A stretch of 64,000 bases of DNA from an uncultured bacterium (GTDB taxonomy: Bacteria > Fidelibacterota > Marinisomatia > Marinisomatales > JABMOV01), in assembly GCA_964654545.1 (NCBI GenBank), contig CAZZIU010000004.1:8156-72155 (forward strand). Reading direction: 5' to 3'. Below the pieces are notes generated by a model. That model was given only the letters and a program-made list of their open reading frames with translations. It ran no database searches and was not told the origin of the DNA. The translations under genes were made by a program, and so were the position numbers. This document shows positions 19,362 through 63,331 of this stretch, in pieces; positions within the stretch are counted from its first letter, which is position 1, and the number at the start of each line of letters is the position of its first letter.

Positions 19362-19369
19362 ACTAAATA
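19362..19369 (+). promoter_or_regulatory. possible late-promoter variant ACTAAATA
   Basis: Intergenic, 32 nt upstream of ATG 19402. The same octamer recurs intergenically at 61667 and 63340. Confidence 0.4.
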
Positions 19370-21220: not shown

Positions 21221-24200
21221 ATGGCTACAGTAAATACAGCATCCGCTCCATACTATGATAATTTTGATGCAAATAAAAATTATTATAGAATTATGTTTCG
21301 TGGCGGCCGGGCTGTTCAGGCAAGAGAGCTTACTCAGTTACAGACTGCACTTCAACAGCAGATAAAATATCATGGTGATCATATATTTAAGGATGGTTCT
21401 CCTGTATTAAATGGTGAAACTAATATTGTTTTGGATTGCAATTACGTTAGACTTTATGATAATATAGGAATTAATAATGCCACAGGGACAGCCGCAAATG
21501 TTCAAGTAGCATTCGACTCAACCAGTGCCAGTGGAATTGAGGTTCGGGTTGAGAATGGTGTCGCTTTAGACGGAAGGCAGCCACTCGCTAGAGTAATTCA
21601 AGCTGCTGATCGTGATGTTAATGATCCAAAAACATTAATTTTGGCTTATAGTAGTGGCGATCAATTTAAAGCAAATGATGTTATTACCAAAATGGATAAT
21701 ACTATCATTGGGCGTGTTGAGGATTTTTCGACTGATACTACTCCTGCGACAGGAAATTCTTCAATCTTTACGGTATCAGAAGGTGTGTATTATGCTAAGG
21801 GTTATTTCATACACACGACTAAACAGTCAATTATTCTCAGTAAGTATACCAACACTCCTACATATAAAGTGGGATTTTCATACAATGAAAGTATTTCTGA
21901 TGCTGCTGGTGACGCAACATTATATGATAATGCACAGGGAACGTATAACCTAAATGCACCCGGTGCGGATCGGTTAAAAGTTCAATTAGACTTAGAATTG
22001 GCTCCTGGTTCTGACGGTGTTTCTATATCGGAGACGGCTGATGCGAATTTTTATGAGCTTGCTCGTATCGTAAATGGTTCAACTGAACGTGCAATATTTC
22101 AGCCAATATATTCGGAGCTGGGAGACCAATTAGCAAAGAGAACATATGAAGAAAGTGGTGATTATATTGTTGATGAGTTTATTGCTGATGTCGAAGAAAA
22201 TGATCCGTCTGATCCGAATTCTCAATTGAATATTGGTGTTTCTCCTGGAATTGCTTATGTTCGTGGTCATAGAGTAGAAATACCAGATAGAACGATATTG
22301 GCTGTTAATAAGCCTAGAACATCTGCTGACTTTTCTTCGGAGTCTGTTATTAGTTTGGGTAGTTATGTTATTGTTTCTAATGTGACGAATCAGATTTTTC
22401 AGTCTGGTGATTTTCCGATAGTAGATATTCATTTCGCGAATAATTATGGAATTGAATCTGCTGGGGACCCTCTTAAGAGGGCAAATAGTGTTATTGCGAA
22501 TGCAAGGGTTCGTTCTATTATTCCTATTGAATCTGATGCGAGATATCCAAATCATTATAAGGCTTATCTTTCGGATTTTCGTGCAAATGTTATATCGACA
22601 ACGGTTGCGACACCTTCGGGAAGTGGAACTAAATCAACATTCAATGGTGTAAATGATACAGATATTCCTCAGGCGGGCCAGAATAGAGATGAGAGTATTT
22701 TTATTGGTAGTAGGGTAACAGTTACAGATCCCAATAGTCAAGAGTTTGGTAGATCGGCCGAAATTACGGCGAGAACTGGCAGTCCATTTAATTTCACTTT
22801 AGATCCTCCTTTAGTTGGACTTGCTACTGGAGAGTCTGTTGAAATTTCAACAGATATTAAAAAGGCTCGCTCTCTTCGTATTGGAGCTGCTGGTGCTGAT
22901 GATATTATGGCAGATGTTGCAAACGTAGGAAAGGTTGGCCAAGTTTCAACTGGAGATACAATCGTATATCAGGCTTCAAACAAATGTTTAGTGTTTAGTT
23001 TGAATGATAGTGAAGGTATACGAACACTACCCACACTCACATATAGGTCTTCTGGATCAGGAACAACTAGCGGTGGTAGTGCAACTGTGACGTATTCTGC
23101 GGCTTCGGCGGGTTTGGAAAATTTTGATGCGAAAACATTGGATGAGGCTGTTTTTTCAAATAGTATATCTGGAATATTGACGCCCACAAGTAAAACGCTG
23201 ACCGGAAGCGGTAATCCATATTCATTTCAAGTAGTTTTTCCTGAAGCTCCTGGGCCTCATTCCTTTAATTTAACTGGTATAGTATCACAGGGAAGTCCAT
23301 CTTTAGGGCTAAAAACTAAATCATTAGTAACTGGTAATGTTGTTTCAACTGTAATTGGCGCAGCCGAGAATCTAGCAACACTCCGAACTGATGGAAGGGT
23401 TTTGTTTAATCCCCCAAATAAAACGCCAGGAAGAAAAGATAATTTAGGTGTTTCTGATGTGATTAGGATCCGTAAAGTGGTTGATACACTTCAGTCGGGA
23501 GTTGGACCAAATACTTTTCATTTATCTGATTCGACATATGATATTACGTCTCGGTATATGTTAGATACTGGCCAAAGAGATTCTTTATATGACCATGCTT
23601 CGATTACTTTGCGGCCAGGTGCTGTTCCTCCTGTTGGACAGATTGCTGTTATTTTTGACTATTATAGTCATGGTGGTTCTTCCAATGGTTATTTTTCTGT
23701 GCAGTCGTATGATACTGTCAATAATTCGTATACAGGTATAGGTAGTTATACCCGAGACGATGGTGGTGTTATGCAGCTAAGAGATAGCTTGGACTTTCGA
23801 CCAAGGAGAACAGACCTTTTGGCTACTGCAAAGGTTGATTCGTCAAGTCGTACTGATACTTTCTATTTACCGATTACGGGTAAAAATTCTCCGGCTGATC
23901 AGAGCATTGCAAGCTATTCGGGTACCAAATATTTACCAAGACGGGATAATCTTGTTATTGCATACGATGGCACTCTAAGAGTTATTGAGGGTGTGGCACA
24001 CGAAACACCATTGCCTCCTTCGGATGATCCGGACTCGCTAATTTTATATACAATTTCATATCCATCATATGTGTTTAGCCCACGAGATGTCGAATTGGTA
24101 CCACACAATAATCGACGATTTACGATGAAAGATATCGGTGAAATGAAGTCTCGGTTGGATCGGCTTCAATATTATGTAGCATTAAATCAATTAGAAACAG

Positions 24201-25969
24201 AGACTAACGCAAAAACAATTCTGAATAATGATGGAACGATAGAACGATTTAAAAATGGTATATTGACTGATAATTTTGATAGTCTTCAGGTTGCAGATAC
24301 TTTGAGTGGAGACTATAGAGCAGGTGTCGATACAATTGTTGGCATTTTGAGACCTGCTACTAGAAAGAAGTCCTTCAATTTAATATTCTCTGGTGCAGCT
24401 TTGTATGAGCAAAGAACTGGTATACCAGCAGAGAAATTTAGTGATCTTGTTCTTCCTGAATTTGAAGAAGTTGGTTTTATTACACAAGCAATGGCATCTG
24501 AAGCTGTTTCTGTTGTTGATGTAGATGAAACAGTTTACAGAGGATTTATAACATTAAGCCCATCTAGTGATATTTTTATTGACACACAAGTTATGGGAAC
24601 CGAACCTTCTGTCACAACTACAGATGATTTATCGACATATGTGGATACTACAACTGTAGATGATGAGACACTTGCTGGACCTGATTTGTTAGATTCTGCA
24701 TATATCTATAACAACTATGAGGTTCCTAGTCATTTTCAAGGACCAGGAAATGCTGATCAATTTTTTGGGCTAGAACCAACAATTATGTTAAATCTAGGTG
24801 GTACGACTAGTCGTGTAAACCAGAATGGAATAAAAAGTGGATACAGAACGTGGCGTAATGTTCCCCATGAAGTTCCTCTTTCTGAATTTTTGGGATTTCT
24901 TCGCTCTGCTCCCGCTTCTCCTCAGGCATCATCTGGGCATGTTGTTGATACCTCAGTAATTCCTTATATAAGAGAGCAAGGAATTTCTATTCTTGCTAGT
25001 GGTATGAAGTCTAATACAGTGCTTTATTCGTTCTTTGATAGCCGTAAGGTTAATTCGTTTACTGCACGAGCAAATGAAATCACATTTGATGAGTCTGTTT
25101 TATATGATGATGATGTGGCTGTATATGAGTATCTGAAAAATCAAGATACTGATGCAGAAGGTAGATTGATTGCTGCGAGAGGAAATAAGGCATATATTAT
25201 ATCAAGCAATGGTGCATTTAGTGCTGGAAATGAAGTAAATGCGCCATATAATGAAGGAGATCCTCCAAACCTTGTTGGTAATAATACGACAATTACTGTG
25301 CAATCATATCGACATTATTCTGGTCAAGCGCAAGGTGGTAGCCAACTTAATATTACATTAAATTCTGGTTCAAATTATGATGATCTGGCTGCGCTTCAAG
25401 CAAACACAGATGGCGGTATAATTTATATTGTTGCTGGTAAAGGTGTTGGACAAAAGAGGACGATCACTGGTTATGATAACACCACAAAAATTGCAACAGT
25501 TGGTAGTGCATGGTCCGCGAATGGTTATCCAGACACCACTTCATTATATAGTTTAGGAAACCTACGAACTACAAGTGCTGGTGAATTTATGGGAGTGTTC
25601 ATGCTGCCTATGTATCGCGACTGGTCTCCAGAGGCGTCAGATGATGCCTGGTATCGCTTTACGACTGGAATGAAACCTTTAAGATTGATGGATGTATCTG
25701 ACGGAAGATTGGACCGGGCAACAACAATTGCAGATTCATATTTCTTTGCTTCTGGGCAAAGAACTATAATGTCTCCGAGCCCTCAAGGTCCGGTGGACAT
25801 GAACCCGCCATCTGAAACAATACCGGGTGAACCTTTACCTTTTCCCAGCGAAACTTCTGTAGGTACTCCAACCTTTTGGCCGACAGTAGAAACACCAGTT
25901 GGTGTACAAATGCCTCAATTCGGATTGGGAGGATTTGATTGGACCTTTGGTCCGATCTCATTTATCTAG
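21221..25969 (+). CDS. large (1582 aa) virion structural protein
   Basis: The N-terminal block YYRIMFRGGRAVQARELTQLQTALQQQIKYHGDHIFKDGSPVLNGE recalls a conserved phage structural family (DUF4815-like, from memory). It lies in the fibre/baseplate block. Confidence 0.5.
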   Translation: MATVNTASAPYYDNFDANKNYYRIMFRGGRAVQARELTQLQTALQQQIKYHGDHIFKDGSPVLNGETNIVLDCNYVRLYDNIGINNATGTAANVQVAFDSTSASGIEVRVENGVALDGRQPLARVIQAADRDVNDPKTLILAYSSGDQFKANDVITKMDNTIIGRVEDFSTDTTPATGNSSIFTVSEGVYYAKGYFIHTTKQSIILSKYTNTPTYKVGFSYNESISDAAGDATLYDNAQGTYNLNAPGADRLKVQLDLELAPGSDGVSISETADANFYELARIVNGSTERAIFQPIYSELGDQLAKRTYEESGDYIVDEFIADVEENDPSDPNSQLNIGVSPGIAYVRGHRVEIPDRTILAVNKPRTSADFSSESVISLGSYVIVSNVTNQIFQSGDFPIVDIHFANNYGIESAGDPLKRANSVIANARVRSIIPIESDARYPNHYKAYLSDFRANVISTTVATPSGSGTKSTFNGVNDTDIPQAGQNRDESIFIGSRVTVTDPNSQEFGRSAEITARTGSPFNFTLDPPLVGLATGESVEISTDIKKARSLRIGAAGADDIMADVANVGKVGQVSTGDTIVYQASNKCLVFSLNDSEGIRTLPTLTYRSSGSGTTSGGSATVTYSAASAGLENFDAKTLDEAVFSNSISGILTPTSKTLTGSGNPYSFQVVFPEAPGPHSFNLTGIVSQGSPSLGLKTKSLVTGNVVSTVIGAAENLATLRTDGRVLFNPPNKTPGRKDNLGVSDVIRIRKVVDTLQSGVGPNTFHLSDSTYDITSRYMLDTGQRDSLYDHASITLRPGAVPPVGQIAVIFDYYSHGGSSNGYFSVQSYDTVNNSYTGIGSYTRDDGGVMQLRDSLDFRPRRTDLLATAKVDSSSRTDTFYLPITGKNSPADQSIASYSGTKYLPRRDNLVIAYDGTLRVIEGVAHETPLPPSDDPDSLILYTISYPSYVFSPRDVELVPHNNRRFTMKDIGEMKSRLDRLQYYVALNQLETETNAKTILNNDGTIERFKNGILTDNFDSLQVADTLSGDYRAGVDTIVGILRPATRKKSFNLIFSGAALYEQRTGIPAEKFSDLVLPEFEEVGFITQAMASEAVSVVDVDETVYRGFITLSPSSDIFIDTQVMGTEPSVTTTDDLSTYVDTTTVDDETLAGPDLLDSAYIYNNYEVPSHFQGPGNADQFFGLEPTIMLNLGGTTSRVNQNGIKSGYRTWRNVPHEVPLSEFLGFLRSAPASPQASSGHVVDTSVIPYIREQGISILASGMKSNTVLYSFFDSRKVNSFTARANEITFDESVLYDDDVAVYEYLKNQDTDAEGRLIAARGNKAYIISSNGAFSAGNEVNAPYNEGDPPNLVGNNTTITVQSYRHYSGQAQGGSQLNITLNSGSNYDDLAALQANTDGGIIYIVAGKGVGQKRTITGYDNTTKIATVGSAWSANGYPDTTSLYSLGNLRTTSAGEFMGVFMLPMYRDWSPEASDDAWYRFTTGMKPLRLMDVSDGRLDRATTIADSYFFASGQRTIMSPSPQGPVDMNPPSETIPGEPLPFPSETSVGTPTFWPTVETPVGVQMPQFGLGGFDWTFGPISFI

Positions 25970-27911: not shown

Positions 27912-30900
27912 ATGCCAGTCGATACGGAACAAATGCCACAAATCTCTCTTTCTGATACTTTCAATGAATGGAGAGTGAAATATAATAGTCTTGTTGCTGC
28001 ATTTAATAATTTACCTACCGCTGCTTCTGGTTCTGTCACTCGATTAGGTGGAACAATTGATGGTGATAACAGTGGGGCTGGTGTAGTAGCAGCTCAATTA
28101 GGAACTTTAATGATTCGTACTAGTAGTGTTCCTACGGCTGGTATTGGTGTTGGAAAATTTTTAGGAACGAATGAGCCTATTGTTCCGGGTGCTCAACTTC
28201 ATGTGCGAACAGGATCGAACTCTGCGGTATGGTTAGAGACGGACACTGCCGATAAATATGCAGCACTTGTACTCAACAATTCTTCTACTTTATCCGTAAC
28301 TGAAATTACACAAAATTCAATTAGCGTTTCAAATGCAACCGCACTATTCGCAGATGATACTGGTATATACCACTCTGGAGAAATCGTTGCGAATACTCTT
28401 GGTGTTTGGGCAAATGGTGCGACAGGGTTCAAGATTATTGCTGCGGGTGGTGGTGCTTCCCATGATCTTGCAAATAGTCAAGGAACTTTTTCTCCATCTA
28501 CAAAAGGATTTATATTACATAATGCAAAATTTGTCGCAAACCAATCGCATCTTGTAACAGAAGGAAAGTCAGTATTTTCTAGAACAGCAGGTTTGTATTG
28601 GGATAATGATACAAAAATTGCTACTGCTGCTGATGGTATTTTGGCACCTAGTGCTCCTGGTTTTAATCTGTTAAACGCCAACACTGTTGCAAATTCTACG
28701 GGCACATATGCTCCTCGTTATGGTGGATTTCACTCACAACCGACTGAAACTGTTGATAATGTCGAAACTGCATTATTTGTTGCAAACACTAAAGGTGTTA
28801 TTGCTGGTGGTGAAATTGGATTTAGCCTTGCTGACGAATCATTTGTAGCAAATTCTACAGGAATTTATGGAAGATTTTTCGGTACGACTGTAGGAACAGG
28901 TTCGGATTATAATGCTGTTAATTTCTTTAAAATTACTGGTGGTTCTTTTACTGCCAATACTACCTCAGTATATGCAAATGCAATAAACATAGGTACTGAT
29001 ACGACAGCATATGCTGCGGCTGATGTTACGGGAGCTAAAGCACCGATATTAATCAATCGTTTTGTTGAAGCTAGTGCCGTGAGCGGGCCAATACCTCCAG
29101 CTGGTGTGAATAAAATATCTTTTCTTACTAAAGCATCGACGATTCCAGGGGACCCAATATTTGCAAATTCTCATGGTATTGGTATTTCCTGGACTTCTGG
29201 ACCTGGCGGTAAAGTTGCCATTGATCATTATACCGCAGGTGAACATCGATTTTTGGTGAATGAAAACGGAACCTCTGCCGGCTCCGGTGCAATTTTCGAT
29301 GCTGCTGATATACGTTTTCGGGCTAATATCCAGGGAGTTTTTGCAAATAGTGTATACGGTTATGCTTTAGATGATACTTCGTTTGTTGCAAACAACACCG
29401 GTCTCTGGGTAGATGAGACTAATGGGCTCAGAATGCTTGGTGGAAGTCCATTCAAAGTTATTAGCACTGATGGAACATATGCATTTAGCAATCCTGGATT
29501 CAAATTGAAGCAGGGCACAACTGTTGCAAATTCGACGGGTACCTATGTTGATATTACTGCTTCAGGAATGGCCGCATTTAAAATATTGAACAATCATGCG
29601 CTTGTTCATGTTGTGGCAAATACAAAAGGAACATATGCGGATGGTGGTGCAGCTAAAGATGGATTTGCTTTAATTTCTGGAACTCCTGGAAATTATTTTA
29701 GTGCAAATAATAAAATGGTCCTTAGCCCGAGAACGACTATAGATGTTTTTGGTGATGCTACTGTTACATCTGGAAATAATGCGCCGTTAAGAATTATAGA
29801 CAACAACGGTGGGCCCACTAATACGTTGGAGCCCTTTGGAACAAATAAGATCTCTTTTGGTGCTGCGCAGTATTCAAATACAATTGGAATCGGTACATCG
29901 TATCAAGCGGGTGTCATTTCTTTTGATACGTATTCTTATGATACTTTTCGTTGGTTTTCAAGGGCAGGAGAAGACACATTTACTAGATTAGATGATGCTA
30001 TGCTATTTGCTAACACGTTTCATGGTTTTGTTGCAAATTCTAGTAACGGTTTTTCGATCGGAAATGCTGCTGCCCCTGGTTTAGACGCAGAAGGTGGAAG
30101 AGTCTTTGTAGCAAACACCTCAATGGTATATGCACCTATGCATATCTCGTCTCAATCTAATTATGGATTTGCAACTATCAATAATCGCCCAGGAGATCAA
30201 GGATTTTTCACTGCAAATACGATTCGTGCAGGTGTCCGAGCCGATGCCCCATCTGGCCTAGATGGGTATCCTGCGACAGGTGGAACGGATGCTAGAACTG
30301 GTAAATGGGCTCCGATATTCATAGGCACATTATCGCAGTCTACAGGCGCGCTACATGAAGCTGCTGGTGTGAATAAAATATCATTATTGCACCATTACAA
30401 CGCAGCATCACAATATCAAAATACTATAGGTTTTGGTGTAACTAGCACTTCGTCGGAGAGCAACGGCAGAAACATACTTGACGTGTATTCTTCTTCGTCT
30501 GGTGTGAGAGTGTTGTCGTCTAGTGATGGCGCGAACATTGATGATGCGAAAGGTGAGGCTTTCTTTTGGAATGCAGTCAACGAAACAGTTTTTGTTGCCA
30601 ATAATGCTGCTTTGTTTACTGGCAAGCATATTCAAAGCACGAATACCGCTATATTTGGATCAAATGGAGCCAATTTTCTCGGCACTACTACTAAAACACC
30701 CTCGGATTGGTTTGGACCTAAAGCACCAATTAGGGTAGGAAACTATACGCCAGTGTACGGTGGCCAAGATAAATATCCTTCGGGTGTGAATAAGATTAGT
30801 TTTTGGATTAGTGACGGCGACGACCTGACCGAAGGCACTAATAAGTCTTATGCAAATTCTCTTGGATTTGGAACTGTGGGTGGTTCCGGTGCTCACTATA

Positions 30901-31397
30901 CCCTTGATGCATATAGTATTACCGATTTTAGAGTATTCTCCCGGTCCCCAGGTGGTGGCGCTGGAACGGGCGCATGGACTTTAAATGATAATCGGTTTAC
31001 CGTCAATACATTAGGTACTTTCGTTAAACCTACATGGGGAGCTTCAACATCATCTGTTCTTCCTATTGTTGCTAACTCTGCTATTGCAAATTCCACTACA
31101 AGCGAGACAGATGGAGCTAATTACGGAAACGCAAATGGTTCGGTCACGCTTGTAGGAAATATTAAAATATGGTTCGATACAAGAAATATTTCCGGTTCCG
31201 GGCCGGCTACGCCGATTGATTTATCTTCAGAATTTATTAAAATTTGGACAGTGCAAGCTACTCAGGCGAGCCAATCGGACGATCGCTCGCCCCGGGCGAA
31301 AGTTCAACCTGATGAGCGTTCGATTGTAATCACCCACGGCGGCAGCGGATCCCCGGGCCCGGTGTTCAGTATACTAGTTATTGGCGAATCGGTATAA
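27912..31397 (+). CDS. tail fibre protein (1161 aa) with reiterated (F/V)(V/T)AN(S/T)xG(I/T)(Y/W) motif
   Basis: Ala/Gly/Thr/Asn-rich and nearly free of charged residues. At least 9 copies of the FVANSTGIY-like motif were seen. The N-terminal 55 aa are paralogous to the next gene. Confidence 0.6.
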   Translation: MPVDTEQMPQISLSDTFNEWRVKYNSLVAAFNNLPTAASGSVTRLGGTIDGDNSGAGVVAAQLGTLMIRTSSVPTAGIGVGKFLGTNEPIVPGAQLHVRTGSNSAVWLETDTADKYAALVLNNSSTLSVTEITQNSISVSNATALFADDTGIYHSGEIVANTLGVWANGATGFKIIAAGGGASHDLANSQGTFSPSTKGFILHNAKFVANQSHLVTEGKSVFSRTAGLYWDNDTKIATAADGILAPSAPGFNLLNANTVANSTGTYAPRYGGFHSQPTETVDNVETALFVANTKGVIAGGEIGFSLADESFVANSTGIYGRFFGTTVGTGSDYNAVNFFKITGGSFTANTTSVYANAINIGTDTTAYAAADVTGAKAPILINRFVEASAVSGPIPPAGVNKISFLTKASTIPGDPIFANSHGIGISWTSGPGGKVAIDHYTAGEHRFLVNENGTSAGSGAIFDAADIRFRANIQGVFANSVYGYALDDTSFVANNTGLWVDETNGLRMLGGSPFKVISTDGTYAFSNPGFKLKQGTTVANSTGTYVDITASGMAAFKILNNHALVHVVANTKGTYADGGAAKDGFALISGTPGNYFSANNKMVLSPRTTIDVFGDATVTSGNNAPLRIIDNNGGPTNTLEPFGTNKISFGAAQYSNTIGIGTSYQAGVISFDTYSYDTFRWFSRAGEDTFTRLDDAMLFANTFHGFVANSSNGFSIGNAAAPGLDAEGGRVFVANTSMVYAPMHISSQSNYGFATINNRPGDQGFFTANTIRAGVRADAPSGLDGYPATGGTDARTGKWAPIFIGTLSQSTGALHEAAGVNKISLLHHYNAASQYQNTIGFGVTSTSSESNGRNILDVYSSSSGVRVLSSSDGANIDDAKGEAFFWNAVNETVFVANNAALFTGKHIQSTNTAIFGSNGANFLGTTTKTPSDWFGPKAPIRVGNYTPVYGGQDKYPSGVNKISFWISDGDDLTEGTNKSYANSLGFGTVGGSGAHYTLDAYSITDFRVFSRSPGGGAGTGAWTLNDNRFTVNTLGTFVKPTWGASTSSVLPIVANSAIANSTTSETDGANYGNANGSVTLVGNIKIWFDTRNISGSGPATPIDLSSEFIKIWTVQATQASQSDDRSPRAKVQPDERSIVITHGGSGSPGPVFSILVIGESV

Positions 31398-40933: not shown

Positions 40934-40941
40934 TATAAATA
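40934..40941 (+). promoter_or_regulatory. T4-type late promoter TATAAATA
   Basis: Perfect octamer in the g17-g18 spacer, 62 nt upstream of ATG 41003. Confidence 0.6.
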
Positions 40942-54724: not shown

Positions 54725-56426
54725 GTTTGAGAAAATTCGTTATAAGAATTTTTTGTCATCGGGTAATAATTTTTCGGAAATTGATTTAGCCAAAGATGCA
54801 AGAACTCTTATTGTTGGTAAGAACGGGTCAGGCAAAAGCACATTGCTTGATGCGATTACCTTTGGTCTTTTTGGTAAACCATTCAGAAAGATTAACAAAC
54901 CTCTATTGGTCAACACGGTAAATGATGGCGAGTGTTTGGTTGAAGTTGAATTTAGTATAGGCACTGCACAGTATAAAGTTCGACGAGGTATTAAGCCTGC
55001 GGTCTTTGAAGTGATTCATGATGGAAACACAATCGACCAAACCGCGAGCGCCAAAGACTTTCAGGAATACTTTGAGCATCAAATCCTACATCTCAATTTC
55101 AAATCGTTTACGCAAGCGGTGATTCTAGGTAGTGCCACATTTCTTCCATTTATGCAATTGCCGGCTGCACACAGAAGAGAAGTGATTGAAGACCTACTTG
55201 ATATTCGCATCTTCTCTGGAATGAATGTGATTCTCAAAGAGAGAATAGGGCAAGTAAAGACAAACATTTCTGAGAATGAACGAAACGTCGAGGTTGCAAA
55301 CGAAAAGATTCAAATTCATCGAAAACATCTCAATAAGATACAAGATGACAGAGAAGCAGTAATAACTGCAAAAGAAGCCGATATTTCAAATACCGCTATT
55401 ACTATCGAAAATCATCAAGAAATAGTCAGCGAAAACAATAAGTTAATCGACACGCTATCCGCTAAAATTGAGAATTTTGGAAAATTTGAAAAAACGAAGA
55501 ATAAGATAGAAGGTCTGATCGATAAGATATTGGTCAAAGAAAAGAAGCTCAATAAAGAGATTGATTTCTATCAAAAGCATGATGAGTGCCCAACTTGTCA
55601 GCAAGATATTCAATCGGATTTTAAGTCTTCTATTATAGAAGACAAGAACAAGATGATAGAAGAAGTCACTTCTGGTATTGAAACGCTGAACACCAAACTT
55701 GAAAAAGTTACCGACAGCATTACCAAAATGACCACAATTAAAGATCAAATCGTAAAGCTGGAAACGACGAGTAATAATTATTCGGGTGAAATCAAAACTC
55801 TTGAAATGTATATCGAGAAGATAAACCAAGAGATTGAGAACATGCGAGCAATCAATGAAGATTTTTCACAAGAACAGGAAGAACTAGAATGCCTCGAAAA
55901 GAGCATTCAGGAATACGAATCAGAAAAAGAAGAACTAATTACAGACAATGAATTGTATAGTGTAGCTTCAGCATTGCTTAAAGATAATGGCATCAAGACT
56001 CTCATCATTAAACAGTATATTCCAGTTATTAATAAGCTCATTAATCATTATCTTGCTTCAATGGATTTCTTTGTTAATTTTACACTTGATGAAAATTTCA
56101 ATGAAACAATTAAGAGCCGACATCGTGATAGCTTTTCATACTACAATTTTTCAGAGGGCGAAAAGAAACGAATTGATCTTGCTCTACTATTCACTTGGCG
56201 AACGATTGCGAAGCTCAAGAATTCGGTTAATACCAATTTGCTGATCATGGATGAAGTATTCGATTCGAGTCTTGATAGCGAAGGTACAGAAGAGTTTTTT
56301 AAGATTCTATATTCTGTTCCAGAAGATTTGAACATCTTTATCATTTCGCACAAGGATGCATTGCAAGATAAATTCACTAATACGATTAGTGTTGAGAAGG
56401 TGAAAGGATTTAGTAAACTGACATGA
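54717..56426 (+). CDS. g46: recombination ATPase subunit gp46 (Rad50/SbcC-like)
   Basis: Walker A GKNGSGKST, a long central coiled coil with a CPTC zinc hook, a FSEGEKKRIDLAL signature, and Walker B LLIMDEVFD. Confidence 0.9.
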   Translation: MIKFEKIRYKNFLSSGNNFSEIDLAKDARTLIVGKNGSGKSTLLDAITFGLFGKPFRKINKPLLVNTVNDGECLVEVEFSIGTAQYKVRRGIKPAVFEVIHDGNTIDQTASAKDFQEYFEHQILHLNFKSFTQAVILGSATFLPFMQLPAAHRREVIEDLLDIRIFSGMNVILKERIGQVKTNISENERNVEVANEKIQIHRKHLNKIQDDREAVITAKEADISNTAITIENHQEIVSENNKLIDTLSAKIENFGKFEKTKNKIEGLIDKILVKEKKLNKEIDFYQKHDECPTCQQDIQSDFKSSIIEDKNKMIEEVTSGIETLNTKLEKVTDSITKMTTIKDQIVKLETTSNNYSGEIKTLEMYIEKINQEIENMRAINEDFSQEQEELECLEKSIQEYESEKEELITDNELYSVASALLKDNGIKTLIIKQYIPVINKLINHYLASMDFFVNFTLDENFNETIKSRHRDSFSYYNFSEGEKKRIDLALLFTWRTIAKLKNSVNTNLLIMDEVFDSSLDSEGTEEFFKILYSVPEDLNIFIISHKDALQDKFTNTISVEKVKGFSKLT

Positions 56427-57532
56427 AAGATTGGCAACACGGATATGAATTAGAATATTTGAAAGAGATTGAAAGTCGGTATTCGCTGTATAACCATCAC
56501 TCGTGTTCTCCTTTTTCTGAAATGAAGAAGAATACAATTGCAAAGGATTTGCACGAAGGAAATCTTTTCATAGAAGAATATGGCATGTATGTAGAAAAGA
56601 CTGCAAAGGTCGAATCTGCAATCAAGATGTTTGATGATGTCGTTATTGGAAAAAAAGAAAAAGGTGACCGAATCATTACGCGATTTAGCTATGAATCCGA
56701 AAGATGGTGTCGCCGTAAACTATCGCAGCTTGAAGGTCCTTGTTGGTTGGAACTTTGGGCAGAAAATTTTGAAGCAAGGAGAATTGCCCAAGAGTGTGAT
56801 TTTGTAGAAGTTGGAACAAAAGTTACGTCTTTCGGCGAACTGTTGGTTTGGCTGTTCAAAGACGCAGACAATCCTTTGTTTGAAAGGCAACATCCTCATG
56901 TGATGCCAGAAGAGTTTTACACGCTGAGAAAAGCTAGATTGTCTGAGATTCCGATTCAGCCTCTTATCGATTCGTTGGATCGTATTGATTTGGATTACAC
57001 AGACCACTATTCAAATTATAACAAGAAGCATTCTTGGTCTGCTCTCTCGTTTCGTGGATATACAAATAATCCTGCATTCATCACTAAACCAGAAGAGATG
57101 AATAAGAAGTGGAAAGAAGAGCATAAGGATGTCGTGTTTGCTATGCAAGACACGCCATTGCGAGAAAAGTTCCCGGAACTTGAACCGGTTATAAATACGT
57201 TACCAGGTGAGAAGCATAGAATACGATTAATGAAACTTGTTCCGGGTGGTGGCGAACTACAAAGACACACCGATCAAGTAGACAAAGATTCTGGAATACG
57301 AAATGGTAAGATTATGCGATTTCATTTTCCATTGATTACTAACCAAAACGTGTCGTTTACAAATTGGCAAACAAATGGAGTGCCTACGCACGCAAACATG
57401 CAAGTTGGCGAGTGTTGGTATATTGATACAAGAAAACCCCATAGTGCTATTAATTCTGGAAACAAAGATAGAATACATCTGGTTGTTGACGTAGAAGCAA
57501 ATGATACTTTGAGGGGACTGATAGGTGATTAG
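56423..57532 (+). CDS. 2OG/Fe(II)-type cupin dioxygenase, aspartyl/asparaginyl beta-hydroxylase-like
   Basis: ATGA overlap with g46. The C-terminal domain LVPGGGELQRHTDQV...MRFHFPLIT...VGECWYIDTRKPHSAINSGNKDRIHLVVDV fits the AspH-family HxD...H...R pattern. The N-terminal 190 aa or so are unassigned. Confidence 0.75.
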   Translation: MKDWQHGYELEYLKEIESRYSLYNHHSCSPFSEMKKNTIAKDLHEGNLFIEEYGMYVEKTAKVESAIKMFDDVVIGKKEKGDRIITRFSYESERWCRRKLSQLEGPCWLELWAENFEARRIAQECDFVEVGTKVTSFGELLVWLFKDADNPLFERQHPHVMPEEFYTLRKARLSEIPIQPLIDSLDRIDLDYTDHYSNYNKKHSWSALSFRGYTNNPAFITKPEEMNKKWKEEHKDVVFAMQDTPLREKFPELEPVINTLPGEKHRIRLMKLVPGGGELQRHTDQVDKDSGIRNGKIMRFHFPLITNQNVSFTNWQTNGVPTHANMQVGECWYIDTRKPHSAINSGNKDRIHLVVDVEANDTLRGLIGD

Positions 57533-57535
57533 ATT

Positions 57536-58318
57536 ATGTTATTTGACGAGGCAGAAACTTATTTGAATAGAATTGGTGATTGGGTTGATCCAAATCCAGA
57601 ACCAATCATTATGGAACACGAAGGCTTTGTTGTTGTTCGTGATGACTTGCTTGGTGCTGGAACAAAAGTTCGTGGTCTTGACTATTTGATCGGTCATGCT
57701 CCAGAATACAAAAACATTAGAGAGTGGGTGTTTGGCTCTTGCCCTGCGACTGGTTATGCTCAGATTAGTCTGCCTACTGTATGCTCGCGTTACGATAAGC
57801 GTGCCGTTCTTTTTATGGCAAAAAGAGATCCAAAGAACTTTCATCCGTATCAAAAACTAGGCATTCGTGCAGGAACAGATTATCGGTGGGTGCCAAATGG
57901 TATGTTGAATGTGACTCAAGCCAGGGCGCGTGAATATGCAGAAGAGTCACCCGAAACGCGAAAAGTTTTACCTCTCGGTCTAGAGCATCCATATGTAACT
58001 GCATGTTTCATTAAGGTTGCACGTTCATTGCCCGAGCCAAAAGAGTTTTGGACTGTTGGTTCAAGTGGTTCATTAAATCGTGCGTTGCAATTAGCATGGC
58101 CAGATGCAGATGCTCATGTTGTTTCTGTCGGGCATAAGATGAAGGAACGCGAAATTGGTCGAGCGAAATATTATCGTTCAGATTTGAAATTTGATAAAGC
58201 AGTATTAGCAAAGGACGAACCACCCTTTCCCTCTGCACCCACTTATGATGCAAAAGCATGGAAGTTTGTGCGCGAACATGCATCACCTGGTGCGTTGTTT
58301 TGGAATGTTGGTGCTTAA
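57536..58318 (+). CDS. PLP-dependent enzyme, ACC deaminase / D-cysteine desulfhydrase family (short, 260 aa)
   Basis: VVRDDLLGAGTKVRGLDYLI aligns with [24 protein letters not shown] of Pseudomonas ACC deaminase, placing the PLP lysine at K44 (nt 57665-57667). EHPY, the VGSSGS loop, and the C-terminal PTYDAKAW / FWNVGA also align. Confidence 0.7.
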   Translation: MLFDEAETYLNRIGDWVDPNPEPIIMEHEGFVVVRDDLLGAGTKVRGLDYLIGHAPEYKNIREWVFGSCPATGYAQISLPTVCSRYDKRAVLFMAKRDPKNFHPYQKLGIRAGTDYRWVPNGMLNVTQARAREYAEESPETRKVLPLGLEHPYVTACFIKVARSLPEPKEFWTVGSSGSLNRALQLAWPDADAHVVSVGHKMKEREIGRAKYYRSDLKFDKAVLAKDEPPFPSAPTYDAKAWKFVREHASPGALFWNVGA

Positions 58319-58326
58319 TATTTATT

Positions 58327-59004
58327 GTGATTTCTGAGACTAAAGAATTCCTATATAGTACAATAAAAGAATATGAACATATTGCATTGTCGTGTTCTTT
58401 TGGTGCGGCTGAAGGCATGGTGATCATAGACTTATTGGATAGTCTTGATATTCATATTCCTATATTTGTGCTTGATACTGGAAGACTACCTCAGGAAACA
58501 CACAATTTGATCGACCGTATACGAGATCGCTATGATGTCAATATCGACATGGTGTTTCCAAATTCAGATGAATTGTTTGATCTGGTTAAGACAAGGGGAC
58601 CAAACTGTTTCTTCGATTCGGTTAGTAATCGCAAGCTCTGCTGTCATGTGAGAAAAGTGGCACCACTAAAAAGGTACATGGAAAATAAAGGATATAAAGC
58701 ATATATATCAGGAGTGCGAAAAGAACACAGCGAAGAAAGATCAAAAGCAGAACGCATCGAAAAACAAGCCGATGGTATGATCAAGATTAATCCACTATGC
58801 GACTGGACATACACTGACGTATGGGAATATGTAAATGCAAATAGCGTTCCAGTGAACAAATTACACACAATGGGATATGAGTCAGTTGGCTGTGCTCCAT
58901 GTTCTCGACCGGGAAAAGGTCGAGACGGTCGTTGGTGGTGGGAAAATTCAAATAAAGAATGTGGCATACATGATTATGGTCACACAGATGGGTCAGGCAT
59001 ATGA
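58327..59004 (+). CDS. cysH: assimilatory sulfonucleotide (APS/PAPS) reductase CysH, Fe-S-cluster type
   Basis: C-terminal KECGIH (58957-58971) matches the CysH ECGLH motif. The CC pair (58639-58644) plus CAPC (58891-58902) form the APS-reductase Fe-S signature. ALSCSFGAEG is the PP-loop-like N-terminus. A GTG 58327 start is inferred, because the track ATG at 58258 overlaps the upstream gene by 61 nt. Confidence 0.85.
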   Translation: MISETKEFLYSTIKEYEHIALSCSFGAAEGMVIIDLLDSLDIHIPIFVLDTGRLPQETHNLIDRIRDRYDVNIDMVFPNSDELFDLVKTRGPNCFFDSVSNRKLCCHVRKVAPLKRYMENKGYKAYISGVRKEHSEERSKAERIEKQADGMIKINPLCDWTYTDVWEYVNANSVPVNKLHTMGYESVGCAPCSRPGKGRDGRWWWENSNKECGIHDYGHTDGSGI

Positions 59005-60596
59005 AGCATTTTTATGAGCGAAACGACTATATACTCAATCATGAAATCAATAAGAATTTTGAAGAGATTTTGTGGATGAATGATACGGAGTTTCGGCAAT
59101 GGGTGATTGACATGCGAAAGGTGATTGCTTATGCTTGGGATGAGCTAGGCATTCCTCCTCGTGTTGGATTCAATGAAGATCAAATCATCGACCAGTTCAA
59201 CAAACTTGATTCTTTTCCTGTTCACGGATTTGTACAGACTGATGAAGTGACTGGTGAAAAAGATGTTATTCGTAACACATCTGTTGTAGGTAATGCTGCC
59301 AATCAGTGGTTTCCTACAATGATGGCAACCAAGATCAATTATAAAAATTCTTCTGACGGGCTCTCGATCTACGATCATTTTGTGCGTGATGATTTGCTCG
59401 AAAAAGTGACTACTTACTCTCGTAGGCACTTCAAACGAGACAGTTTCTATCATTACTCGCTTCCAGTAAAGGCTCGCGATCAAGAAAATTTTGTGTTCTA
59501 TGCTGAGACTGGAGCCGAGTGGATCGATCAATTCGAGAAGAATGAGCGTCAATATGAACGAAGTGATTATTGGCTTTGCCCGAAGAAAGAAGATGCTAAG
59601 TACACAGGTTACAACGAGAAACTAAAGAATCAGACATGGCTTACTCTTACTAAAGATGAAATTGAGAGCATAAATATACCTGAAAAATGTAAAACAAATG
59701 TTGATTATGACAAAAGCGAACTTTATCAGATAAGGTACTTCTCTTATGGACAAAAACTCTTTCCCCTTGGACTCAAGGCCTTCCGAATCTCTTGGTGCCA
59801 ATACGCAGTCAACTTCCCACCGCTCACCGCGAAGTATCTATATGAGACGTATACGGAGAGCTTGGTCCGAGAAAAAACAAAGTCGCACACAGAGAGTGAT
59901 CGCATTGTTATTTATGATCCCAGTAGTGGTTGGGGTGGCCGTATTCTTGGCGCTATGTGCGTTCGCCCTGATCGCACTATTCATTATATCGGCACCGATC
60001 CTAATACTGACCATGTTATTGATGAGCGCAATGGGAGCAATTATACAAAGTATGAAGACCTTGCAACTTTTTATAACGAAAAAACTTATCGAACTCAAGG
60101 ACTATTCCCGAAAGTAAATACATATGAGCTATTTCAAGATGGCTCTGAAGTTATTTCACAGAATGAAAAGTTTCAAGAGTACAAAGGTAAAGTGGATCTG
60201 GTGTTCACTTCACCTCCATACTTTGCGAAAGAGGCGTACTCTCAAGACGAGACACAATCTTATAAAAAGTTTGGTGAGTATGATGAATGGCGAGATGGGT
60301 TTCTCGTTCCTACATTAGAGACGTGTGTTGAATGGTTGGCACATGAACGATATCTTTTGTGGAATATTTCAGATGTTAAGTTTGGTAAAGATATGTTGCC
60401 TCTTGCAGAAGATTCGCAGAAAATTCTTGAGTCTCTAGGTATGAAATTTGTTAAGATATGGAAGATGTCGATGGCACAGATGCCTGGTGCAAACAGACTT
60501 GATCCCGACACAGGACTCCCAATGGCTAAATATTCCTGTAAGGTCAAAGACATTTGGCTGAAATACGAACCTATATTTGTATATTATAAACCATAG
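59001..60596 (+). CDS. DNA methyltransferase, (S/D/N)PPY type (N6-A or N4-C), with about 280-aa unassigned N-terminal half
   Basis: Motif IV DLVFTSPPYF (SPPY at 60210-60221). Motif-I-like IVIYDPSSGWGGRILGA lies about 110 aa upstream and is preceded by NFPPLTAKYLYETY. The start has an ATGA overlap with cysH. Confidence 0.7.
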   Translation: MKHFYERNDYILNHEINKNFEEILWMNDTEFRQWVIDMRKVIAYAWDELGIPPRVGFNEDQIIDQFNKLDSFPVHGFVQTDEVTGEKDVIRNTSVVGNAANQWFPTMMATKINYKNSSDGLSIYDHFVRDDLLEKVTTYSRRHFKRDSFYHYSLPVKARDQENFVFYAETGAEWIDQFEKNERQYERSDYWLCPKKEDAKYTGYNEKLKNQTWLTLTKDEIESINIPEKCKTNVDYDKSELYQIRYFSYGQKLFPLGLKAFRISWCQYAVNFPPLTAKYLYETYTESLVREKTKSHTESDRIVIYDPSSGWGGRILGAMCVRPDRTIHYIGTDPNTDHVIDERNGSNYTKYEDLATFYNEKTYRTQGLFPKVNTYELFQDGSEVISQNEKFQEYKGKVDLVFTSPPYFAKEAYSQDETQSYKKFGEYDEWRDGFLVPTLETCVEWLAHERYLLWNISDVKFGKDMLPLAEDSQKILESLGMKFVKIWKMSMAQMPGANRLDPDTGLPMAKYSCKVKDIWLKYEPIFVYYKP

Positions 60597-60607: not shown

Positions 60608-61342
60608 TTGGGACGTAAAAATAGAAGGATGAAAATGAAGCAAGTCGAGCATCTAAAGTTAGTCGATGCTCAAATCATGGAAACAGACTTCAGAAAAGAA
60701 AGAAAGGTTGAACTCTCAGCAAGAAATCCCAAACAGCAAAGATTAATAAATCTGTTAGAAAATCACAATAAGCATATTACGTTTGCAATAGGACCAGCTG
60801 GTACAGGCAAAACGCTAATCAGCACACTCTACGCAATTCGTAGCCTAAAAAATAAAACAACTCAAAAAATTGTAATAACTCGACCGGCAGTGAGTGTTGA
60901 TGAACAACACGGATTTTTGCCGGGAACATTGGTAGAGAAGATGAGCCCGTGGACAAGACCAATGTTTGACATATTCGAGGAATACTATTCCCCGAGCGAA
61001 ATCGGACAACTAATTAACGAAAATATAATTGAGATTGCTCCTCTTGCGTATATGCGCGGGCGAACATTCAAAAATTCTATAATTATTGCCGATGAGATGC
61101 AAAATGCAACTGATAATCAGATGAAAATGTTATTGACAAGAATAGGAGAAAATAGTAAGATTGTAGTTACTGGTGATCTTGACCAACACGATCGCGGGTA
61201 CGACAATAATGGTTTAAAAATGTTTGTGGATCGTTTACATAAACGTAATAGTAAAATGATTGGAGTAGTAGAATTCTCAAAAACCGAAATTGAACGACAT
61301 CCTGTTGTTGACGAGGTATTGAATCTATACGCTATGATCTAG
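60608..61342 (+). CDS. phoH: PhoH-like ATPase
   Basis: Walker A GPAGTGKT, ITRPAV, LPG, IIIADEMQN and VVTGDLDQ form the canonical PhoH block order. The start is TTG (ATG alternatives at 60629 and 60635). Confidence 0.9.
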   Translation: MGRKNRRMKMKQVEHLKLVDAQIMETDFRKERKVELSARNPKQQRLINLLENHNKHITFAIGPAGTGKTLISTLYAIRSLKNKTTQKIVITRPAVSVDEQHGFLPGTLVEKMSPWTRPMFDIFEEYYSPSEIGQLINENIIEIAPLAYMRGRTFKNSIIIADEMQNATDNQMKMLLTRIGENSKIVVTGDLDQHDRGYDNNGLKMFVDRLHKRNSKMIGVVEFSKTEIERHPVVDEVLNLYAMI

Positions 61343-61365
61343 CATAATAATTACAGGAATTTGTT

Positions 61366-61671
61366 ATGGTAAAAATGATTAAAAATTTGTATACCTTTAT
61401 TGCGAGCAATGTAGAAACATATGGTAGTAATTATATGAACCGATTTATAGTTAGATCAGTTCCAGAATATAAAGAAAGGGAAAATAAGCACGGCCTGGCC
61501 AGCTGGCCAACTATGTGTTCGCATTGTGGTGATTTAATAAATTCTGGTGAAGTGTATGGCGCCGTCGATGATGTGTATCAACACGATTACAGAGACATGC
61601 ATTTTGCTTGTTTGTTGAAAAATATAGAAAACGAAGAAATTAATTTAAATTCTGAACTAAACATATACTAA
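61366..61671 (+). CDS. hypothetical protein (101 aa), Cys/His-containing
   Basis: Contains CSHCGDLINSGE ... HFAC, which may be a small zinc-binding motif. No family recognised. Confidence 0.45.
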   Translation: MVKMIKNLYTFIASNVETYGSNYMNRFIVRSVPEYKERENKHGLASWPTMCSHCGDLINSGEVYGAVDDVYQHDYRDMHFACLLKNIENEEINLNSELNIY

Positions 61672-61674
61672 ATA
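61667..61674 (+). promoter_or_regulatory. possible late-promoter variant ACTAAATA
   Basis: Overlaps the upstream stop and lies 86 nt upstream of the porin ATG. It is the same octamer as at 19362 and 63340. Confidence 0.3.
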
Positions 61675-61760
61675 GAGTCTATCATCAATAAACTAAAGAG
61701 ACATTGTGTTCCATTGTTGGGGCATGGTGTCTTTTTGGTATAGGAGAAAAAGCATAAAAA

Positions 61761-62867
61761 ATGGGTAAATTTATTCGATTATTTGTAAGTGTAATTGTTA
61801 TGACCTTTATGGCTACTGCCGCAACTGCGGACGTACCTGTATGGGAGAACGGAGACCGTTCATTTAGCATTGGTGGTGCTCTGCGTACTAGTGGAGTTGC
61901 CGATTTAGATGATGGTAAGGATTTTGACGTTCTTGTAGATAATGCAAGAATCAATACTTCAGCAAAACTAAACGACTCTATTGATGCCGTAGTAAGCATC
62001 GAAAAGCGAGATGGTGAAGATATAAATCTACTTGATGGTTTTGTCAATGTAAAGGTCGTTGACAAACTTCAGGTTAGAGGTGGTCGCTATAAGGTAGCCA
62101 CCGATCGGAGCAATCTTGTATCACCATTTAATCAACTCGTTTGGAGTCCCGCTTCAGTCGTCAATCGCTACCCAGATACATATGACCGAAGAGCAGAGGG
62201 CATTTCTGCTTGGTCTAATCTTGGTAACCTCGGTGTATCTCCTTCTAACGATGGAGACCTAACACCTAAGTTCAAGTATTATCTTGGTGTGTTTACTGGA
62301 GTTAATAATAGTAACAACCCTATGGTAGCACTTCGAGGATCAGTTGATTTAGCTGATGTTGAGGGTGGTTATGATCTTGCTGGCACTTACTTTGGTCAGA
62401 AGGATATTTTTACACTAGGTGCCTCCTTTGCTAATCAGGAAAATGCATTTGGTGATGGAGACAATTTCACTGCATTTTCGTTTGATGTACTCTTTGAGCG
62501 AGACATCGAAGAGCTAAAGGGTACGCTTACACTTGGCGCATCTTTGAATGATTATGATCTAGATGATGCGTACTATACTGTAGGCAGCGATGTCCGCGAT
62601 GGTCGCGGTTATATGATCGAAGCTGGATATATTCCATCTTCTATTGTAATTGCAAAGGGTACTCCACTTGAGGGTAGAATCCAGCCCAACTTTAGATTTC
62701 AGAATTTTAAGTTCGGTGGAGCACAAAAGGGACGAGAGCAGCAGTTTGATGGTGGCTTAAACTATATCATTTCGCCAACAATTGTGGCAAATGTGAATTA
62801 TAGTCACAACAAGCTGAAAAAAGCTAAGTCTGAGGATATTACATTTGGTATTCGTTATAATTTCTAG
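61761..62867 (+). CDS. outer-membrane beta-barrel porin-like protein (possibly OprO/OprP phosphate-porin-like)
   Basis: Sec signal peptide MGKFIRLFVSVIVMTFMATAATA|DV. There are no other hydrophobic helices, and the sequence has alternating beta-strand patterning. The C-terminal ITFGIRYNF is an OMP beta-signal with a terminal Phe. LLDGFVNVKVVDKLQVRGGRYKVATDRSNLVSP resembles the Porin_O_P conserved block (from memory). Confidence 0.65.
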   Translation: MGKFIRLFVSVIVMTFMATAATADVPVWENGDRSFSIGGALRTSGVADLDDGKDFDVLVDNARINTSAKLNDSIDAVVSIEKRDGEDINLLDGFVNVKVVDKLQVRGGRYKVATDRSNLVSPFNQLVWSPASVVNRYPDTYDRRAEGISAWSNLGNLGVSPSNDGDLTPKFKYYLGVFTGVNNSNNPMVALRGSVDLADVEGGYDLAGTYFGQKDIFTLGASFANQENAFGDGDNFTAFSFDVLFERDIEELKGTLTLGASLNDYDLDDAYYTVGSDVRDGRGYMIEAGYIPSSIVIAKGTPLEGRIQPNFRFQNFKFGGAQKGREQQFDGGLNYIISPTIVANVNYSHNKLKKAKSEDITFGIRYNF

Positions 62868-62906
62868 ATTCGACTATATAATATAACGCTGAACCCCCAA
62901 AGGAAG

Positions 62907-62937
62907 CCCCCAACCTGTAATGGGTTGGGGGTTTTTT
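62907..62937 (+). terminator. intrinsic terminator after porin gene
   Basis: 9-bp stem CCCCCAACC (62907-62915) / GGTTGGGGG (62923-62931), 7-nt loop, then TTTTTT. Confidence 0.85.
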
Positions 62938-62942
62938 GCGTT

Positions 62943-62950
62943 TATAAATA
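62943..62950 (+). promoter_or_regulatory. T4-type late promoter TATAAATA
   Basis: Perfect octamer right after the terminator, 43 nt upstream of ATG 62993. Confidence 0.6.
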
Positions 62951-62992: not shown

Positions 62993-63331
62993 ATGCCAAT
63001 AATTCCCGATAAAGTAGAAGTGACCATTAGCCCCATTCGGGTCATTTCTACAATTCTTACACTAATTGCCTTTGGTATGCTATTCTTCACTGCTGGAGAT
63101 TGGATAGGTAGAGCAGATGCCGCACATGCTATTACTACCGAACACAAAGAAGAGTTGCCGAAGTTGCAACAAAGCTCAAAAGATCATCATGAGACGATCA
63201 GCAAACTGACGGACATTTCTACAAAATTAGCTAATCAGCAAGAGATACTGGTTCGTCAGCAAGAATTGGAAAGAAAAATGTGGGGCGAAGATTATGAAAA
63301 AAAAATCCATGAGATTCTTTCTACTGACTGA
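62993..63331 (+). CDS. single-pass membrane protein with coiled-coil C-terminal domain (112 aa)
   Basis: One hydrophobic helix (VISTILTLIAFGMLFFTAG) followed by a charged helical region (ELPKLQQSSKDHHETISKLTDISTKLANQQEILVRQQELERKMW). It is driven by a late promoter. Confidence 0.5.
   Translation: MPIIPDKVEVTISPIRVISTILTLIAFGMLFFTAGDWIGRADAAHAITTEHKEELPKLQQSSKDHHETISKLTDISTKLANQQEILVRQQELERKMWGEDYEKKIHEILSTD

Follow-up and report, generated by a model that had tools for sequence, protein, structure and literature searches.

A porin gene of marine T4-like phages with apparent affinity to FmdC-like porins

The porin gene and its predicted product

The window analysed in this work is a 64,000-nucleotide stretch of contig CAZZIU010000004.1 (GenBank assembly GCA_964654545.1, positions 8,156 to 72,155 of the forward strand), and the subject of the study is a gene near its 3' end, which a first-pass annotation had described as a phage-encoded outer-membrane porin resembling the phosphate-selective channels OprO and OprP. 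The window has the gene set of a T4-like myovirus (terminase, sheath, portal, scaffold, major head protein, UvsW, gp46/47 and baseplate hub), in agreement with the lytic-type T4-like genome assumed in that annotation. Compared with Pelagibacter phage HTVC008M and Methylophilales phage Melnitz, the major head protein shows only ~60% identity. The genes of the window all lie on the + strand, its GC content is ~39%, and no tRNAs were found in it. The porin gene and the elements of its product are located as follows (aa, amino acids):

61761..62867, + strand: porin gene, 368 aa including the signal peptide; stop codon 62865-62867
61761..61829, + strand: Sec (SPase I) signal peptide MGKFIRLFVSVIVMTFMATAATA, predicted to be cut before DV (sequence reading, rule-based call)
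62082..62132, + strand: family signature GGRYKVATDRSNLVSPF, aa 108-124, running from the last part of strand 5 into a long L3-like loop (aa 112-143)
62835..62864, + strand: last strand with the beta-signal ...DITFGIRYNF (strand 355-367 of the modelled barrel)

The signal peptide combines a basic n-region (K3, R6) with a hydrophobic core and with small residues at positions -3 and -1, the predicted cleavage falling between ATA and DV. It contains no Cys that could belong to a lipobox, thus the product is not a lipoprotein. In the alignments A23 is invariant and the AxA-type cleavage site is kept throughout the phage porin clade described below, and an [AS]-x-A site ahead of an acidic residue is recurrent also in the divergent relatives. 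The C-terminal aromatic signal of the kind recognised by the BAM machinery (ITFGIRYNF), which the first-pass annotation had pointed out together with the AxA-type Sec signal peptide and the lack of further helices, is present as well: F368 and G363 are invariant, and the terminal F occurs in every alignment. G108, R109 and R116 are invariant or near-invariant (alignments A2-A5), and the internal block LLDGFVNVKVVDKLQVRGGRYKVATDRSNLVSP (LLD...GR...DRSNL) is the best-conserved core of the porin family. The protein contains 35 Arg and Lys residues (R+K) and has a net charge of -13.

An AlphaFold2 model, built from a 65-sequence alignment, predicted a barrel with good confidence (pLDDT 82.4, pTM 0.81). 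Residues 2-18 were modelled as a low-confidence helix, which supports the signal peptide, and the rest as an all-beta body. The model has 17 DSSP strand elements, and because the first two are contiguous, the barrel consists of ~16 strands; the expectation that structure prediction would return a beta-barrel was thus borne out. Strand 5 is followed by a 32-residue loop with a short helix, in the place that the L3 constriction loop classically occupies. When the model was compared with the PDB by Foldseek, the top matches were all 16-stranded trimeric porins. OprP (2o4v) was nominally first (E 3.6e-11, TMq 0.61), its lead over OmpT, OmpU, OmpC and Omp32 being marginal. The best match in BFVD was an uncultured siphovirus protein labelled 'Phosphate-selective porin O and P'.

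The protein thus combines the features by which porins are classically recognised: a predicted cleavable signal peptide, a barrel with an even number of strands, a loop after strand 5 and a C-terminal aromatic signal. We consider it very probable that the gene encodes a functional outer-membrane porin. The possibility that it encodes a virion protein was rejected on account of the signal peptide and the barrel.

A phage porin clade and its cellular relatives

Orthologues with 83-89% identity to the window porin were found in at least 8 independent contigs, and the close ones, in JGI, ENA and IMG/VR contigs, share the gene order phoH-orf101-porin. Altogether, the clade is represented in over 20 contigs of marine T4-like phages (JGI, ENA/TARA, Logan, IMG/VR), with phage genes on both sides. 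A literature search with the sample accessions found no paper, and the habitat is that of marine/TARA-type metagenomes. In a neighbour-joining tree of 69 sequences computed from Kimura distances, all 13 phage porins and the protein P0207 formed one clade in 160 of 200 bootstraps, with 24-39% identity between the phage subclades. The first-pass annotation had called a porin unusual in a T4-like genome. This agrees with the deposited phages: among 50,697 genomes there was no DNA or protein match to the window porin or to two divergent members of the clade, and therefore no cultured host can be inferred.

The genes of the clade occupy two loci, one after a DNA methyltransferase (MTase) gene and the other between gp45 and gp44. 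The P0207 and L109 porins directly follow the MTase gene, and P0124 does so in TARA-derived T4-like contigs of 72 kb and 104 kb, where the order is UvsW-gp47-gp46-hydroxylase-PAPS reductase-MTase-porin and phoH is missing. The second arrangement belongs to another lineage of marine T4-like phages, with the porin gene set into the core replication module: in L023 (6990-10040) and L024 (6883-9822) it lies upstream of the gp43 polymerase, with the gp45 clamp on one side and the gp44 clamp loader on the other, and in L112 (241-2396) it is directly upstream of gp44. In a 107-kb IMG/VR contig (L021/L022) the porin gene comes after gp46, a Mom-like gene and one more open reading frame (ORF). The Mom-like protein (PF25680, E 9e-10) is encoded at 5415-6410 of L021 (IMG/VR 3300009370_000007), and closely behind the porin come genes for an HNH endonuclease and for a 2OG-Fe(II) oxygenase. 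L018 and L019 are fragments of low GC content; the ORFs downstream in them resemble those of the divergent phage L016.

Pairwise dN/dS between close orthologues was 0.11-0.12 at dS values of 0.45-0.56, similarly to the neighbouring MTase and phoH genes. Positions that vary among close orthologues cluster in short loops, and only 4 of the 32 positions of the L3 loop are variable. The L3 loop and strands 4-5 are the least variable part of the protein, which argues for selection on the channel core. Phage flanks in independent genomes, purifying selection and flanking terminators, the marks of a phage auxiliary or moron gene, are all found for the porin. We conclude that the clade is inherited and has diversified within marine T4-like phages. 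Judged from the sequences, it would be simplest to suppose that these phages acquired an FmdC-like cellular porin once, long ago, and that it has since stayed with them, diverging and in some cases moving to another locus.

The window ORF had no match in Pfam or PHROGs. In NCBIfam the sole curated match was the ExtI model NF040900 (81 bits, E 7e-23). As this score is below the 150-bit cutoff and there is no rhodanese or cytochrome neighbour, assignment as an ExtI equivalog was rejected. A word-index search returned three orthologues at 83-89% identity and then ExtI-like porins of Desulfuromonadales at ~28%. An exhaustive phmmer search found 261 relatives, including P0124 (38%, E 2e-63) and many others at 26-36%; with representatives of the FmdC-like family the E values ranged from 1e-33 to 1e-20. 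Profile-profile comparison by hhalign, using a 12-member profile of the phage clade as query, gave 100% probability for the FmdC-like family (E 5e-58, 310 columns), 99.7% for ExtI-like proteins (E 6e-27, 269 columns), 98.4% for miscellaneous PF07396 members (E 5e-15, 308 columns) and 23% for OprP (E 9e-4, 86 columns, C-terminal only).

In the literature (PMC5877670; also bioRxiv 10.1101/138586), FmdC is cited as a short-chain-amide/urea porin and as the closest characterised relative of ExtI. FmdC of Methylophilus methylotrophus (Mills et al. 1997, as cited in PMC5877670) and the urt-linked porins of Alpha-, Beta- and Gammaproteobacteria are the best profile-profile match of the phage porins. 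They share with them the length class (~340-360 aa in the mature form), the ~16-strand architecture, the LLD...GR...DRSNL...P[FY] core and non-basic residues at the positions of the OprP arginine ladder. The phage porins differ from this group in forming a separate clade, in having lost the LPPS sequence and in being located in phage replication or modification modules. ExtI of Geobacter sulfurreducens, a selenite/tellurite-associated protein (NF040900, PMC5877670), belongs to the same superfamily and aligns with the phage porin from end to end, but its hhalign score is half of that of the FmdC-like family, it retains the OprP-like RR pair and R133, which the phage porin lacks, and it has an ExtH rhodanese neighbour, for which there is no counterpart next to the phage porin. 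In L008 (827-4012) a 638-aa rhodanese-domain gene precedes the ExtI-like porin P0007, as in ExtH-ExtI. This context helps to split the ExtI subfamily from the urt/fmd-linked one.

Most of the closer cellular relatives (n=87, including same-cluster duplicates) have the common signature W-x-GR-[FML]-LPPSDR[SA]NL-x-GP[FY], the equivalents being GRYKVATDRSNLVSPF in the window porin and GKFKYNLTRENLEACE in ExtI-type proteins. In the window sequence (V-R-G-GR-Y-KVATDRSNL-V-SPF) GR, DRSNL and the P-aromatic pair are kept, W and LPPS are lost. On these sequence comparisons, the window porin is placed closest to the FmdC-like (urea/short-chain-amide) branch of the Porin_O_P superfamily.

Transcription signals and neighbouring genes

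The genes and signals surrounding the porin gene are the following:

60608..61342, + strand: phoH (PF02562, E 3e-69), with the porin two genes further downstream
61366..61671, + strand: 101-aa ORF, shared by L001-L007 and L020, with the pattern CxxC...H..C
61658..61685, + strand: weak sigma-70-like promoter candidate TAAACA-16-TATCAT (consensus scan, 9/12 match)
61692..61739, + strand: hairpin and U-tract in the gap between the 101-aa ORF and the porin gene (-29.3 kcal/mol, z = -5.3)
61742..61746, + strand: Shine-Dalgarno sequence AGGAG inside the conserved GGTATAGGAGAAAA, identical in close relatives and present in L016
62907..62937, + strand: intrinsic terminator with a 9-bp GC stem, a 7-nt loop and T6 (-28.4 kcal/mol, z = -3.3)
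62943..62950, + strand: late promoter TATAAATA for the gene that follows (62993..63331); it delimits the porin unit on the downstream side
62993..63331, + strand: 112-aa ORF whose product has a transmembrane segment at the N-terminus and resembles a coiled coil in its C-terminal part, preceded by the late promoter

The arms of the intrinsic terminator are CCCCCAACC (62907-62915) and GGTTGGGGG (62923-31), with T6 at 62932-37, and the folding energy confirms the strong terminator of its own that had been proposed for the porin gene. On the other side of the gene, none of 200 shuffled sequences folded as stably as the hairpin at 61692-61739. This hairpin is conserved, with a compensatory stem change in L001/L020, and an analogue followed by the same GGTATAGGAGAAAA is found in the divergent phage L016; an Rfam search with it found no credible family. 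From its sequence, the hairpin could be the terminator of the upstream unit, an attenuator, or a structure or stabiliser of the 5' untranslated region. Because these two terminator-like hairpin/U-tract elements bracket the gene, the porin can be regarded as a self-contained unit.

The canonical T4 late promoter TATAAATA occurs in 11 copies in the window, of which 10 sit 3-62 nt upstream of gene starts (examples are at 40934, 43009, 46948, 48245, 62943 and 63560). The genes behind it include those of the sheath, tube, scaffold and major head protein, and the two ORFs 3' of the porin have theirs at 62943 and 63560. The scan of the window detected no canonical late promoter before the porin gene. 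The late motif recurs as a variant, ACTAAATAG, at 19362 ahead of an ORF of 600 aa and at 61667, which is 87 nt ahead of the porin. Judging by these motifs, the porin is probably not expressed from a late promoter. The weak sigma-70-like site, which overlaps the variant at 61667, is the sole promoter candidate and may serve the porin.

The 101-aa ORF is under purifying selection among close relatives (dN/dS 0.08-0.13), matches no family of Pfam, PHROGs or PADLOC, and is, together with phoH, absent from the L016 lineage. The 112-aa ORF has a weak homologue in L016 (13823-14059, 32% identity). Upstream of phoH, a cassette at 56423-60596 encodes an Asp/Arg hydroxylase (PF05118), a 260-aa ORF, a PAPS-reductase-like protein and a 531-aa N6/N4 DNA methyltransferase. 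It accompanies the porin locus in the window, in L001-L006 and in L016, and partly in L109 and L117. The PAPS-reductase-like gene has a 61-nt overlap with the preceding ORF and its product matches BrxP of PADLOC (E 7e-17). The four genes may together form a module for DNA modification or against restriction. The tail/baseplate region of the window contains three very large ORFs (12345-19337, 21221-25969 and 27912-31397, of 2330, 1582 and 1161 aa, respectively), which presumably encode fibre or baseplate-wedge proteins.

Possible role of the porin and alternative explanations

We infer the following course of events in the infected cell. The precursor would be exported by the host Sec system and cleaved after ATA, and the BAM machinery would insert the porin in the host outer membrane by recognising the C-terminal ...GIRYNF. 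The ~16-stranded barrel would have a pore narrowed by the long loop after strand 5, which bears the GR...DRSNL sequence. Such a porin would be an added outer-membrane channel for small hydrophilic nutrients, whose influx would aid phage nucleotide and protein synthesis in nutrient-poor seawater. Phages carrying the porin probably alter what crosses the outer membrane of the infected cell. That the role of the porin is nutrient influx during infection has, in our estimate, slightly better than even chances.

As to the substrate, the family placement suggests that small uncharged nitrogen compounds (urea, amides), or small solutes generally, are the most likely candidates. The genes of P0295 and P0296 (30-31% identity to the window porin over >90% of the length) lie immediately upstream of a complete urtABCDE set, in which all five genes score above the curated NCBIfam cutoffs. 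A genome scan for the signature yielded at least 571 homologues, and among the best 79 of these loci a UrtA-type transporter was found within 6 kb in 50, although this sample is biased to the P0296 subfamily. In Methylovorus mays the gene order is porin, FmdA formamidase (794 bits, cutoff 500), FmdB, UrtA-type binding protein, which we take to be the fmdC-fmdA-fmdB-fmdD arrangement described for Methylophilus. Besides the sampling bias, several observations weigh against carrying this substrate over to the phage. The phage clade is only ~25-31% identical to the FmdC-like porins, a distance at which specificity is not reliably conserved, and the window porin (VATDRSNLVSPF) keeps the cellular signature only in part, the signature of the sister phage porins being even more degraded. 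No urea or amide metabolism gene was seen adjoining the phage porin gene; the flanking genes are phoH, orf101 and MTase or gp45 and gp44, and linkage to urtABCDE or fmdA/fmdB was not found. The contexts of P0125 (from a Myxococcales metagenome-assembled genome) and P0209 are uninformative and have no adjoining urea genes, thus the wider porin family is not uniformly urea-linked. Neutral nitrogen compounds of the urea/amide type are our leading guess for the substrate, but as a specific assignment the guess is a doubtful one, drawn from sequence relationships. Equally tentative is the wider proposal that marine T4-like phages have long carried a porin lineage of their own, which would open the host outer membrane to urea and amides during lytic infection through a pore re-tuned from its cellular ancestor, as the degenerate FmdC signature and the strongly acidic surface would suggest.

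The first-pass annotation favoured another substrate, phosphate, and saw in the gene an uptake function allied to phoH. The resemblance of the internal block to the OprO/OprP core, on which it leaned, is real: LLDGFVNVKVVDKLQVRGGRYKVATDRSNLVSP can be aligned by eye with the FDEAS...KFGRFY...LEKATSS region of OprP, but this reflects remote superfamily homology only. The window ORF did not match the PF07396 profile at E<=1 or at E<=0.01. The profile matches 13 of 38 family members, among which P0124, the nearest relative, P0125 and P0131 are above the 20.9-bit cutoff. Since relatives match and the window ORF does not, membership in Porin_O_P is superfamily-level, by transitivity. Profiles A1, A2 and A4 retrieved no OprP or OprO chain from the PDB sequences, and neither the single window sequence nor three profiles found any porin there. 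For comparing individual residues we used an OprP reference verified against PDB 2o4v (411/411 identical) and a bridged MAFFT alignment, which is of low confidence outside the D94-R133 block. In this alignment none of the eight ladder arginines is conserved: R34, R59, R60, R133, R218, R220, R226 and R242 correspond to A, D, N, P, L, E, gap and gap, respectively. The R59/R60/R133 columns contain RR and R in the ExtI-like proteins, D/N and a non-basic residue in the phage and FmdC-like groups. The eight binding residues listed in PMC5877670 (D94, Y62, S124, S125, K121, K126, R34, R133) are reduced to the equivalent of D94 (D92, with a one-column offset) and possibly that of S124 (S122); K121 is replaced by N/S, K126 by F and R133 by P. 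The R+K count of 47 per OprP subunit, in agreement with the figure given in PMC5877670, compares with 33-34 in ExtI-like proteins, 27-30 in FmdC-like proteins, 35 in the window porin and 13-21 in the other phage-clade porins, whose net charge is -21 to -35. The window porin thus shares with the Pseudomonas aeruginosa porins OprP and OprO (selective for phosphate and pyrophosphate; 2o4v, 4rjw) the 16-stranded barrel and the homologous D94/GR core motif, but it lacks the arginine ladder, the lysine cluster and the set of phosphate-binding residues, and there is no sequence-level match. Similarly, a genuine phoH does lie two genes upstream, but the functional link is circumstantial, as this adjacency is not kept in relatives: in L016/L017, L109 and L117 the porin directly follows the MTase gene without phoH, and the adjacency is lost also in L024 and L112. 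Moreover, the role of PhoH in phosphate metabolism is itself unproven. The remote Porin_O_P homology, the nominal first place of OprP in the Foldseek search, the nearby phoH and a report of phage-borne oprP in freshwater amoC-phages (bioRxiv 10.64898/2026.06.18.733297) speak for the phosphate reading. It fails nevertheless because no testable defining feature of the phosphate-selective porins holds, and we find it very unlikely that the gene is an OprO/OprP-type auxiliary gene of phosphate uptake coupled to phoH or that phosphate is its substrate.

The porin could act also without being primarily a transport protein, and surface remodelling or exclusion was, like a general nutrient channel, among the ideas of the first-pass annotation. 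It might replace or dilute outer-membrane proteins serving as phage receptors, or change the surface properties of the cell, and thereby exclude superinfecting phages, transport being secondary. This is the main rival of nutrient influx, and we regard it as improbable. The extreme divergence and strongly acidic character of the clade, the short-loop variation among close orthologues and the self-contained, moron-like gene unit speak for it, and there is a precedent: the lambdoid phage PA-2 encodes the Lc porin, known for conversion and exclusion. The conservation pattern, with strands 4-5 and L3 most conserved, argues however for selection on the pore. A dN/dS of 0.12 gives no sign of diversifying selection at the level of the gene, no PADLOC defence model matches the porin, and lytic T4-like phages normally exclude by means of inner-membrane or periplasmic proteins. 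Over-production of porins can destabilise outer membranes, and the next gene (62993..63331) codes for a small membrane-anchored coiled-coil protein driven by a late promoter, which could point to a non-specific permeabiliser for lysis and release or for periplasmic leakage. This is hard to reconcile with the lack of a late promoter before the porin, with the strong terminator that parts it from the downstream gene, with its location among replication genes (gp45/gp44) in other phages and with the ordinary constricted porin architecture kept in the AlphaFold2 model; furthermore, no lysis genes were identified adjoining the porin, and we judge a permeabiliser to be quite unlikely. Lastly, the nearest annotated homologues are bacterial, as would be expected if a bacterial gene had been mis-assembled or mis-binned into a phage contig, or if the ORF were a decaying pseudogene. 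The chance of such an artefact is practically negligible. It is refuted by synteny, phage genes flanking the porin on both sides in more than 20 independent contigs. The GC content of the porin is that of the phage (~39%) as against 57-64% at the cellular loci; besides, the ORF is intact and under purifying selection, and the phage porins form a clade of their own.

Porins of viruses are already on record, thus the kind is known: OmpL was found next to glnK-amtB in viral contigs from an oxygen-minimum zone (PMC8115048), and oprP has been reported from the freshwater amoC-phages mentioned above. BFVD holds further viral entries annotated as porins. Like OmpL, oprP and Lc, the window porin would be a host-derived outer-membrane channel carried by a phage and presumably active in the infected cell. 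Those porins are, however, recent host-like acquisitions or genes of temperate phages and belong to other porin families, whereas the window porin is a member of a deeply diverged phage-only clade in marine T4-like phages of the lytic type. No description of this clade was found in the literature searched. Within that literature and the databases searched, two points appear to be new: lytic-type marine T4-like phages have a deep porin clade confined to phages, and the affinity of this clade is to FmdC, not to OprP.

The phage porin family is small and well delimited. The superfamily label 'phosphate-selective porin O/P' and the phoH neighbour make a tempting mis-annotation, which is corrected here, and placement with the FmdC-like porins would shift the gene from the phosphorus to the nitrogen cycle in surveys of viral auxiliary metabolic genes. 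Phage auxiliary genes of nutrient uptake are known mostly at the periplasmic and inner-membrane level (pstS, amtB). If the role proposed here is true, phages would reprogramme the permeability barrier of the outer membrane too.

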